Below, one piece after another: positions 47,167-50,311 of a stretch of 64,000 nt of DNA; positions within the stretch are counted from its first letter, which is position 1; every line of letters begins with the position of its first letter. Made by a program: the position numbers and the translations under genes. The notes under the pieces are model-generated. The model was not told where the DNA came from and made no database searches. It worked only from the letters and a program-made list of their open reading frames with translations. Source of the stretch: Shigella phage SF1-1; sequence record PQ571307; one strand, 5' to 3'.

Positions 47167-47730
47167 ATGATTTATTATATTACTCCCTATCTGACAGGAA
47201 ATATCGGCAAGGCTATTAATGAAGCCATTGCCGTTCTTCCAGATGATAGTTGGGTGTGTTTAAGAGATACCGATACAATGTTCCTCCTACCTGATCAACC
47301 ATCTATGCTTGAAGAGCTTATTATGTCAAACCCACCTTTTGATGTAATAGGTGCAACTTGTAATAGGCTGGGTAGTGGTTATCAGCTTTTCTCTAACCAA
47401 ATTAATGATGACCCAGACATTCTAAATCACATGGAATATGCTAAAATTGCACGGGAATATCATAAAACAAACGTTGAAGAAGTTCCTTTTGGAACACCTT
47501 TAGCTGGTTTCTTTTTGCTTTTTAGGAAATCACTGTGGAATGAAATTCCTTTCGAAGAAAAATCTATCCAATTTGACTTAATTTTCTCTCGCACTTTACA
47601 CGAAAAAGGAAAAAGGTTAGGATTGATGCGGGGAATGTATCTGTTCCACATTTACAGATTAGGTCAAACAAATCCTCAACGGTCTATACATCATTTATTA
47701 CACTGTCACGATCACAGTAAAACTATTTAG
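47167..47730 (+). CDS. hypothetical protein, possible GT-A-like glycosyltransferase (DxD)
   Basis: 187 aa; LRDTDTMFL DxD-like motif; weak. Confidence 0.4.
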   Translation: MIYYITPYLTGNIGKAINEAIAVLPDDSWVCLRDTDTMFLLPDQPSMLEELIMSNPPFDVIGATCNRLGSGYQLFSNQINDDPDILNHMEYAKIAREYHKTNVEEVPFGTPLAGFFLLFRKSLWNEIPFEEKSIQFDLIFSRTLHEKGKRLGLMRGMYLFHIYRLGQTNPQRSIHHLLHCHDHSKTI

Positions 47731-47738
47731 GAGAGATA

Positions 47739-48422
47739 ATGGAAAATATTAAAATCGGAGTGGGTGTTATCACTGTAGGTGTCCGTCCACTTAAAGACTA
47801 CCTTGTAACAGATCCACGTGCAGATTTTCGAGTATTCAACGATCCAGATCGTAAAGGTGTAGCTTACGCCAGGAATGAACTTATGCACCAGTTTTATGAA
47901 GAAGGTTATGATTATTGGTTTATTTTTGACGATGATTGCTACCCAGTCATGGAAGGATGGGAAACATATTTTGTAGATCAGGCTGTTTCTGGAGGATGGG
48001 ATTTCTTTGGTATGCCGGAGTATTTCAAAGATAAAGTTGTTGGAAGCAAAGGAGAAGTTATTTTCTGGGAACTTGCAATGTGTCAATTTGCAATGTATTC
48101 TCGTGCCGTTGTTGAGAAGATGGGTTATTTCCGTCCTTACACTCACGGTTATGGTTTTGAAGATGCTGAATGGGGACACCGTTTGCAAGCTGCTGGTTTG
48201 AATCATGGTATTCAGGCAACACCTTGTCCACTTCGTATCATGGCTTATATCCACCCAGACGATGTTTTTGGAAACAATCCTATGCCTTTTGCTAATCTGA
48301 CAAAAGAAGAGAAAGAAGCTGCTATTGGTATTAACTGGGAAGAATACAAAGCATCTTTAGAGGATATTAAAAATGGGAAAATCCGAATTTCCTATGAGGA
48401 GGCACTAGCACATGTCAAATAA
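47739..48422 (+). CDS. glycosyltransferase family 2-like protein
   Basis: GVAYARNE, FIFDDDC (DxD), GYGFEDAEW. Confidence 0.55.
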   Translation: MENIKIGVGVITVGVRPLKDYLVTDPRADFRVFNDPDRKGVAYARNELMHQFYEEGYDYWFIFDDDCYPVMEGWETYFVDQAVSGGWDFFGMPEYFKDKVVGSKGEVIFWELAMCQFAMYSRAVVEKMGYFRPYTHGYGFEDAEWGHRLQAAGLNHGIQATPCPLRIMAYIHPDDVFGNNPMPFANLTKEEKEAAIGINWEEYKASLEDIKNGKIRISYEEALAHVK

Positions 48423-49359
48423 AAAATGGTCTAAACTAAAAATTGATGCAAAACCTCACAGCGGTTGTGACTATCATCGTATTGTTATACCATTTAACAA
48501 CAATAATATTCAACCTAAGAAAGATGTTGTTGTGTTTAACCGTATCCACTCTAAAGGTGCAGAATACGTTTTATCTTTGAAACGCCAAGGTGTTAAGATT
48601 GTTGTAGACTTAGATGATTTTTACCAACTTAATCCAGAGCATTATTTGGCAAGTTTATACGAGTCAAACACTCATGCTATTGTGGCTATGGTTAAGCTTG
48701 CTGATGTGGTTATTGTGACTACGGAATACTTGGCATATAAGATCCGTCACTTAAATAGGAATGTTGTTGTGATCCGAAATGCACTTCCTTTTGATAGTGG
48801 ACAATTCACTTTGTCAAATGATCGTTCATCCGGTACCCCTGTTGTATGGGCTGGCGGTGCTAGTCACGAACCCGATTTACGACTAGTCTCTAATACTTTC
48901 GATGATGAACTTCTTACTATTGCGGGATATGAAGCATCGCAGAGCATCACAGGACAAGAGTGGATTAAGATTCGCAGAAATTTACCAAATGCCAAATATA
49001 AAGCTGCTGTAAAAGATTTAGATAATTACATGAGTGTTTACGAAAGTCATGCTATTGCTATAGCTCCTTTGGTAGATAATGATTTTAATAATTGCAAAAG
49101 TAATCTCAAAATCCTGGAAGCTGGGGCAAAAGGTATTCCGATTGTTTGTTCTAAGGTGTTACCTTATTTTAACCCTGTAGATGCTCGTGCTGTTGCTTAC
49201 GCAGAGAATAAAGCAGAATGGCATTACGAAATTGTTAAGCTTCTTCGCAATCCAAACTATCGGGAAGATCGTGGCTTGTTCTTGGCTGAACATGTTCGAA
49301 CACATTATAATCTGGCAGATGCAAATGAGTTGCGACGCCAGGTTATTGAAAGTTTGTAG
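48412..49359 (+). CDS. GT-B-fold glycosyltransferase-like protein (paralog 1)
   Basis: 315 aa; C-terminal KSNLKILEAGAKGIPIV resembles the GT-B E..G...LEAMA.G.PVV motif; paralog of next gene. Confidence 0.5.
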   Translation: MSNKKWSKLKIDAKPHSGCDYHRIVIPFNNNNIQPKKDVVVFNRIHSKGAEYVLSLKRQGVKIVVDLDDFYQLNPEHYLASLYESNTHAIVAMVKLADVVIVTTEYLAYKIRHLNRNVVVIRNALPFDSGQFTLSNDRSSGTPVVWAGGASHEPDLRLVSNTFDDELLTIAGYEASQSITGQEWIKIRRNLPNAKYKAAVKDLDNYMSVYESHAIAIAPLVDNDFNNCKSNLKILEAGAKGIPIVCSKVLPYFNPVDARAVAYAENKAEWHYEIVKLLRNPNYREDRGLFLAEHVRTHYNLADANELRRQVIESL

Positions 49360-49366
49360 GTGAAGT

Positions 49367-50311
49367 ATGGGACAAATAATTCTTGACAATCGTAACGGAA
49401 TCAATTATAGTGTCTGCGATTTCCATAGGGTAGTGCTGCCTTACTCAAGGCAGTTCTCTTCACAACCTAAACACAACGTTTTCGTTTTTAACGGAGTGCC
49501 AACAAAAGGTAAAGAGGGCTTTTTAGCCCTTAAAAACCTAGGCTTTAAAATGGTTATGGATTTGGATGACTCTTTAGTTATTCCAAAAGGACACATGTTA
49601 GAAGGTATTTTTGAATCAGGTATTCGTGAACATTTAAAATGGTTTTTAGAGCACAGTGATCTTGTTACAACTACGACACCTGCCTTGCAAGTTGAACTTT
49701 CACAATACAATGATAATGTGCACATAATCCCTAATGGACTTCCTTACGATGAAGGTCAATTTGTGTTGACCCGTGATCGCTACTCCAAAACTCCATTAGT
49801 CTGGGCTGGAAGTGAAACACATAAACAAGATTTGGCTATCTTGCCCGATTTTGGTAAAGATCTTACAATATGTGGTTTTCGTAGGGATTCTGAAGTTTTA
49901 AGTAGTCGTGAATGGTCTGTAATCAGGGAAAATGTAGCACCAACTTGTGTTTATGAAGGTGTAAGACCATATGCCAACTACATGGAATCTTACGATGGTC
50001 ATCAAATCAGTCTTGCGCCATTGATTGATAACGTGTTTAATAATGCAAAAAGCAATCTTAAAATTCTTGAGGCAGGTGCTAAGGGTTTACCTTTGATCTG
50101 TTCTCCTCGTGAGAATTATCATACACAAGAGTTTAAAGATCTGTTATTCTTTGCTGAAACACCTTCCGAGTGGAAAGATATTACGGAATACTTATTAAGT
50201 GCTCCCGATGTTTGCATGGAGAAAGGATTAGCATTAGCTAAGTATGTCAGGACTCATTATCACATTGATGTGTTGAATGAGCGTCGTAGACTTTTATTTG
50301 AGGAGCTATAA
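49367..50311 (+). CDS. GT-B-fold glycosyltransferase-like protein (paralog 2)
   Basis: 314 aa; KSNLKILEAGAKGLPLI; collinear similarity with 48412-49359. Confidence 0.5.
   Translation: MGQIILDNRNGINYSVCDFHRVVLPYSRQFSSQPKHNVFVFNGVPTKGKEGFLALKNLGFKMVMDLDDSLVIPKGHMLEGIFESGIREHLKWFLEHSDLVTTTTPALQVELSQYNDNVHIIPNGLPYDEGQFVLTRDRYSKTPLVWAGSETHKQDLAILPDFGKDLTICGFRRDSEVLSSREWSVIRENVAPTCVYEGVRPYANYMESYDGHQISLAPLIDNVFNNAKSNLKILEAGAKGLPLICSPRENYHTQEFKDLLFFAETPSEWKDITEYLLSAPDVCMEKGLALAKYVRTHYHIDVLNERRRLLFEEL

Follow-up and report, generated by a model that had tools for sequence, protein, structure and literature searches.

Positions 47167-50311 of the 64,000-nucleotide stretch of Shigella phage SF1-1 DNA analysed here (sequence record PQ571307; the whole stretch is called the window below) carry four consecutive glycosyltransferase genes, ORF1 to ORF4 (ORF, open reading frame), next to replication genes. 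An earlier note on this DNA had proposed that their products glycosylate modified DNA bases, with virion proteins as one alternative. The present analysis does not support the first proposal and favours the second: the genes appear to form a mobile cassette of soluble cytoplasmic enzymes that would build a short oligosaccharide on an acceptor other than DNA, virion proteins being the likeliest, a reading to which we assign a probability of about 0.4. Virion proteins are the best acceptor candidate because of the late, head or packaging positions of related cassettes, the tailoring enzymes that accompany them, the pairing of a homolog with adhesins and a precedent in mycobacteriophages. The glycosyltransferase annotation and the ordinary fold families of these enzymes were known already; what is new here is the context analysis, in which the module is widespread, mobile, untied to replication or base-hydroxylating enzymes, and recurrent in structural operons and beside adhesins. 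The genes are as follows (GT-A and GT-B are glycosyltransferase (GT) folds; aa, amino acids).

47167..47730, + strand: ORF1, 187 aa, minimal GT-A-fold glycosyltransferase with a DxD motif (D34-T-D36) and a conserved H161
47739..48422, + strand: ORF2, 227 aa, GT-A-type by sequence, with FxFDDD (D64-D66) and YGxED (E141-D142); matches phrog_2456, E = 1e-78
48412..49359, + strand: ORF3, 315 aa, GT-B-fold (GT4-like), first of two tandem paralogs
49367..50311, + strand: ORF4, 314 aa, GT-B paralog of ORF3; matches phrog_7162, E = 1.9e-145

These are real glycosyltransferase genes and not chance open reading frames, since they have hundreds of homologs and the block is conserved in 64 phage records. 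Over a region of 3.6 kb the window is 97-98.5% identical to these records, which belong to the genus Phapecoctavirus (e.g., vB_EcoM_DE16 and vB_Ec-G1), i.e., phAPEC8-like Escherichia coli myoviruses of the subfamily Stephanstirmvirinae; RefSeq records of relatives already label all four genes "glycosyltransferase". The earlier note had described two GT-A-like genes with DxD motifs and a tandem pair of GT-B-like paralogs beside primase-helicase, adenine methyltransferase and DNA polymerase genes, and this description was confirmed. The coordinates are exact, and all four products match glycosyltransferase-annotated families in a PHROG profile search (E from 1e-78 to 6.5e-149), while Pfam support is weak or absent; ORF1 is identified by fold and motif, ORF2 by sequence motifs, the ORF3-ORF4 pair by its identity, and the neighbours by Pfam and PHROG, the methyltransferase as a methyltransferase-like gene. 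The four genes share one strand and are tightly packed, with spacing or overlap of at most 11 nt, and hydropathy analysis gave no transmembrane segment for any product (maximum Kyte-Doolittle 19-residue window of 1.65 or less). An NCBIfam scan yielded zero matches for ORF1-4, the 92-aa reading frame that follows them and the methyltransferase-like gene, and PDB sequence searches with ORF1-3 and with family profiles returned nothing meaningful.

The GT-B family is large: the protein collection contains 209 clusters of it, and 576 or more IMG/VR stretches match. Of 97 fetched loci, about 50 have an ORF2-like GT-A gene beside that of GT-B and 22 have an ORF1-like one, and the order ORF1-like, ORF2-like, GT-B (GTA1, GTA2 and GTB in the gene orders below) recurs in unrelated phages at 38-45% identity. 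Linkage to the structural or packaging module is seen in at least six other lineages with homologs, instead of the endolysin-primase/helicase position that the cassette occupies in this phage. Temperate prophages of Enterobacter huaxiensis and Serratia M24T3 lead from an endolysin to GTA1-GTA2-GTB-HNH-TerS-TerL-capsid, with a gene for an NAD-dependent sugar epimerase/dehydratase inserted between GTA1 and GTA2 in the Enterobacter prophage. A Pseudomonas silvicola prophage reads GTA2-GTB-metallopeptidase-terminase, and in a Pseudomonas alliivorans prophage the triad stands directly 3' of the major capsid gene, ahead of the tail genes. Among IMG/VR contigs, two (L044 and L054) have TerL-portal-protease-major head protein-72 aa-GTB and another (L052) has TerL-portal-GTB-GTA1-GTA2-GT_PLOD-methyltransferase, while a lineage of phages of about 35 kb has regulator-GTB-variable partners-TerS-TerL. 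The order UDP-glucose dehydrogenase-GT-HTH-terminase (UDP, uridine diphosphate) is found in Streptomyces phage Zuko.

The variable partners of GT-B are other glycosyltransferases, a hexapeptide acyltransferase and methyltransferases weakly similar to rhamnosyl or macrocin O-methyltransferases, which suits a tailored, diversifying surface glycan. Cassettes also vary within the Stephanstirmvirinae, some lacking ORF2 and others consisting of a single GT-B plus an epimerase. No flippase, polymerase or priming transferase was found in any of the approximately 100 loci. In contigs of about 30-35 kb (L059-L105), the slot between the regulator and TerS holds GT-B together with a GT-A, a hexapeptide acyltransferase, several methyltransferases, a PLOD-type glycosyltransferase and a ParB-like DNA methyltransferase, and looks like a hotspot of glycan-cassette diversification.

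Homologs outside phages suggest, by analogy, that the GT-B family is able to act on proteins. In Trinickia symbiotica, Trinickia sp. LjRoot230 and Burkholderia dolosa, a GT-B homolog of 41-45% identity stands among core chromosomal genes (L109 4742-11026, L110 3025-8440, and L015), co-directional with and directly 3' of genes for an inverse-autotransporter adhesin (IAT_beta + Invasin_D3 + Big_1) and for a protein of 555-571 aa, in which a domain scan gave weak immunoglobulin (Ig)-like hints only. This Burkholderiaceae group may be an undescribed adhesin glycosylation system. Homologs in Luteibacter and Edaphocola belong to small groups of glycosyltransferase and methyltransferase genes without polysaccharide export genes. 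In a Paraburkholderia prophage-like region (L013 6392-8137), a 581-aa protein made up largely of collagen-like G-X-Y repeats is encoded two genes ahead of the genes for an ORF1-like GT-A and a GT-B, and is a possible glycosylation substrate.

As for the order of events, the conserved GT-B would attach the first, acceptor-specific sugar, its duplication here possibly serving two acceptor sites, two linkages or two donors, and the two Mn2+/DxD-type GT-A enzymes would then lengthen the chain. Donors would be host UDP-sugars and deoxythymidine diphosphate (dTDP)-L-rhamnose, the latter in relatives also from a phage RmlABCD operon; the oligosaccharide would be short and lineage-variable, and the outcome a glycan coat on the particle. 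We infer acceptor, order of action, donors and biological benefit alike. The one proven phage precedent comes from mycobacteriophages, in which such a coat alters antibody recognition. Virion glycosylation by glycosyltransferases of cluster F1 mycobacteriophages is summarised in PMC11256854.

The putative rhamnose supply lies at a distance from the cassette. vB_Ec-G1 encodes RmlA, RmlB, RmlC and RmlD, each scoring over its NCBIfam curated cut-off, in an RmlD-RmlC-RmlA-RmlB operon (L003 12056-15334) beside thioredoxin and ribonucleotide reductase genes; this operon falls outside the window, has no counterpart within it, and is separated from the vB_Ec-G1 cassette by about 75 kb in record coordinates (12.1-15.3 kb versus 88-91 kb). 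The dTDP-rhamnose pathway was noted in both Phapecoctavirus and Justusliebigvirus by Olsen et al. (PMC7552041), and in these relatives it may feed the cassette. Phage ESCO37, which is without RmlA and RmlB (PMC10269720), nevertheless retains the cassette; the phage pathway is therefore an accessory supply.

Several observations weigh against virion proteins as the acceptor. The cassette of this phage lies outside the structural module, and no terminator was predicted between it and the replication genes, the combined promoter and terminator scan defining neither transcription unit nor expression timing. Pfam scans of ten vB_Ec-G1 head and tail proteins gave no obvious Ig-like or Ser/Thr-rich acceptor. 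The pre-terminase slot of the lineage of about 35 kb also houses a ParB-like DNA methyltransferase (cluster c21) and so can hold genes other than those for protein modifiers. Phages of Proteobacteria, Bacteroidota and Firmicutes show strong conservation of the N-terminal, acceptor-side domain of GT-B, as would be expected more readily of an enzyme with a universal acceptor than of one that acts on divergent virion proteins. Lastly, the count of structural neighbours, which itself speaks for virion proteins, is to be read with care. Of the 38 non-redundant loci outside the subfamily that extend 5 kb or more to either side, 22 have a verified head or packaging gene within -6 to +7 kb; this figure is a minimum, but it is not independent of phylogeny, many loci coming from few lineages, and it is not far above chance, since such a gene is fairly frequent within any 13 kb of a 40-kb phage. 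Immediate adjacency, repeated in at least six lineages, carries more weight than this count.

The enzymes themselves belong to ordinary families. ORF1 has a single Rossmann-like GT-A fold according to its fold matches, which include Mimivirus R655 and R699 and A197 of Sulfolobus turreted icosahedral virus (STIV), and D34 and D36 of its DxD motif are each conserved in at least 90% of the family alignment. ORF2 is assigned as a GT-A-type glycosyltransferase by its sequence, FxFDDD (with D64, D65 and D66) and YGxED being invariant in its family alignment (A2). Its Pfam scores are all below threshold (TAGT, 19.5 versus 27.5 bits; Glyco_transf_7C, 13.6 versus 23; the GT2 family Glycos_transf_2, 13.3 versus 23.3), and its family profile had no significant match among PDB sequences. 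The match to TAGT (TET-associated glycosyltransferase, PF20691; E = 0.001) covers residues 32-68 only, i.e., the DxD region; with a score under the gathering threshold and no TET annotated nearby, ORF2 is not placed in that family. A weak match was also obtained to the PHROG for the beta-glucosyl-HMC-alpha-glucosyltransferase (HMC, hydroxymethylcytosine). ORF1 and ORF2 were considered as possible paralogs and rejected as such, their similarity being undetectable.

ORF3 and ORF4, on the other hand, are 41% identical over 303 aa (BLASTP, E = 9e-78), and the 29 columns that are invariant in an alignment of 75 family sequences are intact in both. ORF3 has a two-Rossmann-domain GT-B fold nearest to generic GT4 enzymes, its top matches including BshA, sucrose-phosphate synthase and a selenosugar synthase, GT4 enzymes with small-molecule acceptors. 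These generic enzymes rank above the alpha-glucosyltransferase (AGT) of T4 (25th), its beta-glucosyltransferase (BGT; 36th) and the DNA arabinosyltransferase of HY126 (41st), and neither T4 AGT nor T4 BGT is among the top 50 viral fold matches. ORF4 barely passes the cut-off of PF13524 (Glyco_trans_1_2; 25.2 versus 25.0 bits), while the group-1 Pfam scores of ORF3, 20.4 and 22.8, stay under theirs. The EX7E motif is typical of retaining GT4 enzymes; here E236, in KILEAGAKG, is invariant, but position +8 from it is occupied by I244.

The proposal that the enzymes put sugars, such as rhamnose, on hydroxylated pyrimidines of replicated DNA, thereby blocking restriction like the T4 alpha- and beta-glucosyltransferases, draws on the neighbourhood of the cassette, which adjoins the primase/helicase, an N6-adenine-methyltransferase-like gene and the DNA polymerase, much as in T4, whose beta-gt, gene 42, gene 43, dam, 61 and 41 lie close together. 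It is also in keeping with the weak matches of ORF2 to TAGT and to the T4-type PHROG, although the former is below cut-off and confined to the DxD region, with the DNA methyltransferases in the pre-terminase slot of one lineage, and with the conserved acceptor-side domain, DNA being a universal acceptor; Olsen et al. indeed proposed rhamnosylated hydroxymethylated nucleotides for these phages (PMC7552041). We nonetheless consider it very unlikely. Phage bases known to be glycosylated receive the sugar on a hydroxyl that is provided by a ThyA homolog (5-hydroxymethylcytosine, 5-hydroxymethyluracil, 5-hydroxycytosine) or by TET (PMC13326640), and a search for base-modifying enzymes beyond the cassette, which the earlier note had named as a check, found no ThyA-family or T4-type match in the window or in the 98%-identical vB_Ec-G1 genome: tblastn with T4 gp42, beta-gt, alpha-gt and gp56 returned nothing in the window or the full vB_Ec-G1 genome, every match to gp42, beta-gt and alpha-gt having E > 0.9. 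The sole vB_Ec-G1 gene annotated as thymidylate synthase (L003 21315-22313) was rejected as a hydroxymethylase, being weakly ThyX-like (30.9 bits versus a cut-off of 87.9) and not of the ThyA family, and no TET/JBP protein or hydroxymethylase appears among the gene annotations as listed. What has been published on relatives also speaks against the proposal. The phi92-like phages PaulScherrer, EmilieFrey and JohannJBalmer of the BASEL collection (Bas60-62) carry an orthologous GT-B pair at 71% identity, as does an IMG/VR contig (L029; 71% identity to ORF3, gene order as in the window), and Maffei et al. found phi92-like phages "exceptionally susceptible" to restriction-modification despite "a putative dTDP glycosylation machinery" (PMC8594841). 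HincII cut all but three of the phage DNAs of another collection, including those of five Phapecoctavirus isolates and of the Justusliebigvirus isolates, whereas the three uncut DNAs included both T-even-type phages, ESCO47 and ESCO58 (PMC10269720). The same triad moreover occurs in small temperate prophages; in one of these the early region, visible in full from the repressor to the antiterminator Q, encodes no base-modifying enzyme. Because the cassette recurs in temperate prophages without replication genes, it is only in this phage subfamily that it adjoins the replication module. The fold ranking, with generic GT4 enzymes as best matches, argues in the same direction. Activity on DNA without a hydroxy(methyl)pyrimidine precursor, or at sparse sequence-specific sites only, would leave global restriction sensitivity and HincII cutting unaffected and would explain the conserved acceptor-side domain, but appears extremely unlikely. 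Literature searches on Phapecoctavirus, phAPEC8, phi92, Stephanstirmvirinae and Justusliebigvirus turned up no functional study of the cassette, the only statements met with being the speculation on rhamnosyl-DNA (PMC7552041) and the remark on restriction sensitivity (PMC8594841).

Two further explanations place the acceptor elsewhere in the cell. Remodelling of host envelope glycans, by action on undecaprenyl-linked intermediates or on those of lipid A-core, enterobacterial common antigen (ECA) or O-antigen, could provide superinfection exclusion or reduce the trapping of progeny on debris. dTDP-sugar metabolism is common to ECA and O-antigen synthesis, and an undecaprenyl-pyrophosphate-linked sugar would be a near-universal acceptor, in line with the conserved acceptor-side domain. 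ECA and the lipopolysaccharide (LPS) core are receptors of these phages (PMC8594841). The cassettes, however, come without flippase, polymerase, priming transferase or Gtr-type membrane protein in about 100 loci, the four products here lack transmembrane segments, the prophage cassettes sit inside late operons (lysis-to-terminase or head) and not in positions typical of lysogenic conversion, and the Burkholderiaceae homologs pair with an adhesin gene and not with polysaccharide loci, so that we regard this explanation as doubtful. A seroconversion system of the Gtr type was rejected outright, with no membrane proteins among ORF1-4 and no GtrA-, GtrB- or GtrC-type genes in related loci. Another intracellular target, such as a host protein modified for takeover or anti-defence (compare ADP-ribosylation by T4), RNA, or a small molecule, e.g., one made by Ter-associated biosynthetic genes, seems distinctly unlikely: the cassette of this phage runs in the same direction as genes of the early/middle type and is closely packed with them, its direct upstream neighbour is a TerC/TelA/TerD/vWA cluster that includes a ComF-like phosphoribosyltransferase, and small-molecule GT4 enzymes are among the best fold matches, but all other lineages carry the cassette without Ter genes, its embedding in head or packaging operons is unexpected for host takeover, and literature searches turned up no precedent.

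Glycosylation of virion proteins by the cassette would have its closest parallel in the mycobacteriophages (Che8 and others of cluster F1; Freeman et al. 2023, as summarised in PMC11256854). Shared features are several soluble glycosyltransferases encoded by the phage, the position of relatives of the present cassette just before or within the head-packaging module, and, as the product proposed here, a glycan coat on capsid or tail proteins. Unlike in that system, the hosts here are Gram-negative and the cassette, in this phage, stands beside replication genes; the closest similarity to actinophages that was seen consists of distant matches (25-26%) to glycosyltransferases of Streptomyces and Arthrobacter phages. 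The T4 alpha- and beta-glucosyltransferases (GT72 and GT63) and the DNA arabinosyltransferases of the RB69 and HY126 type share with ORF3 and ORF4 the GT-B fold, a size of about 310-400 aa and a position near replication genes, and are also phage-encoded, with a dedicated sugar-nucleotide supply in some phages. In contrast to these systems, the cassette has no sequence homology to them, gives T4-type enzymes a lower fold rank than GT4, has no detected hydroxymethylase or hydroxylase partner, and is found in relatives whose DNA is restriction-sensitive. Adhesin-glycosyltransferase pairs are known in Gram-negative bacteria as AIDA-I/Aah, TibA/TibC and HMW1/HMW1C; the GT-B of Trinickia and B. dolosa is similarly co-directional with an adhesin, suggesting that a protein destined for the cell surface is glycosylated in the cytoplasm, although the known adhesin glycosyltransferases come from other families (heptosyltransferases and GT41). 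Chloroviruses and Mimivirus, which glycosylate capsids or fibrils, also combine GT-A and GT-B enzymes of their own with sugar-nucleotide pathways, including that of rhamnose, and a PLOD-type glycosyltransferase occurs in some related cassettes, while R655, R699 and STIV A197 are among the fold matches of ORF1; these viruses, however, infect eukaryotes or archaea, and it is in fold only that their enzymes resemble those of the cassette. The GtrABC and other O-antigen-modifying loci of temperate phages also represent phage-encoded glycosylation, but consist of membrane proteins near the attachment site, whereas the enzymes of the cassette are all soluble, without a flippase or bactoprenol-linked component.

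ORF1-4 are part of a long run of genes on one strand, in which the endolysin precedes the cassette and the primase/helicase comes after it. The genes that follow the cassette are listed here.

50311..50589, + strand: 92-aa reading frame whose start overlaps the ORF4 stop by 1 base; matches phrog_4240 (unknown function), E = 6e-33
50602-52380: primase/helicase (Toprim + DnaB_C)
52913-53707: gamma-type N6-adenine-methyltransferase-like gene (NPPF motif, phrog_5172, weak Eco57I match)
53707-56304: family A DNA polymerase (PolA), 865 aa, uninterrupted
56334-56912: free-standing HNH endonuclease after PolA (phrog_953)

The 92-aa reading frame (cluster c42), which may be a member of the cassette, comes immediately after the GT-B pair in loci of the Phapecoctavirus and Justusliebigvirus type and trails the cassette in most Stephanstirmvirinae-type loci, with no occurrence in the other lineages. 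vB_Ec-G1 is without the HNH gene after PolA and has instead an in-frame 245-aa insertion in PolA (residues 584-827), which is not present in the PolA of the window and may represent an intein or some other mobile element inserted in frame.

In this virulent phage, a Ter (tellurite-resistance-type) cluster (36606-45844) immediately precedes the endolysin and the cassette.

36606-37433: ComF-like phosphoribosyltransferase
38236-39210: TerC
40836-41426: SprT-like
41423-42535: TelA
43937-44731: vWA-TerF-like
45242-45844: TerD

GC skew in the window is positive between about 24 and 60 kb and negative on either side, tracking switches of the coding strand. No transfer RNA (tRNA) genes were found in the 64-kb window; 10-11 have been reported for these phages (PMC7552041).

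Phapecoctavirus and Justusliebigvirus phages are often isolated and are used in therapeutic cocktails, and the analysis removes from them a tempting but unsupported annotation of DNA glycosylation and anti-restriction. The cassette also offers an explanation for the hitherto unexplained phage dTDP-rhamnose operon, and the search for its relatives points to a candidate adhesin-glycosyltransferase pairing in Burkholderiaceae. If the reading in terms of virion proteins is true, virion glycosylation would no longer be confined to mycobacteriophages but would also be a trait of common coliphages and of many prophages in Proteobacteria and Bacteroidota, and glycans on the particle might influence its adsorption, its stability and its recognition by antibodies.

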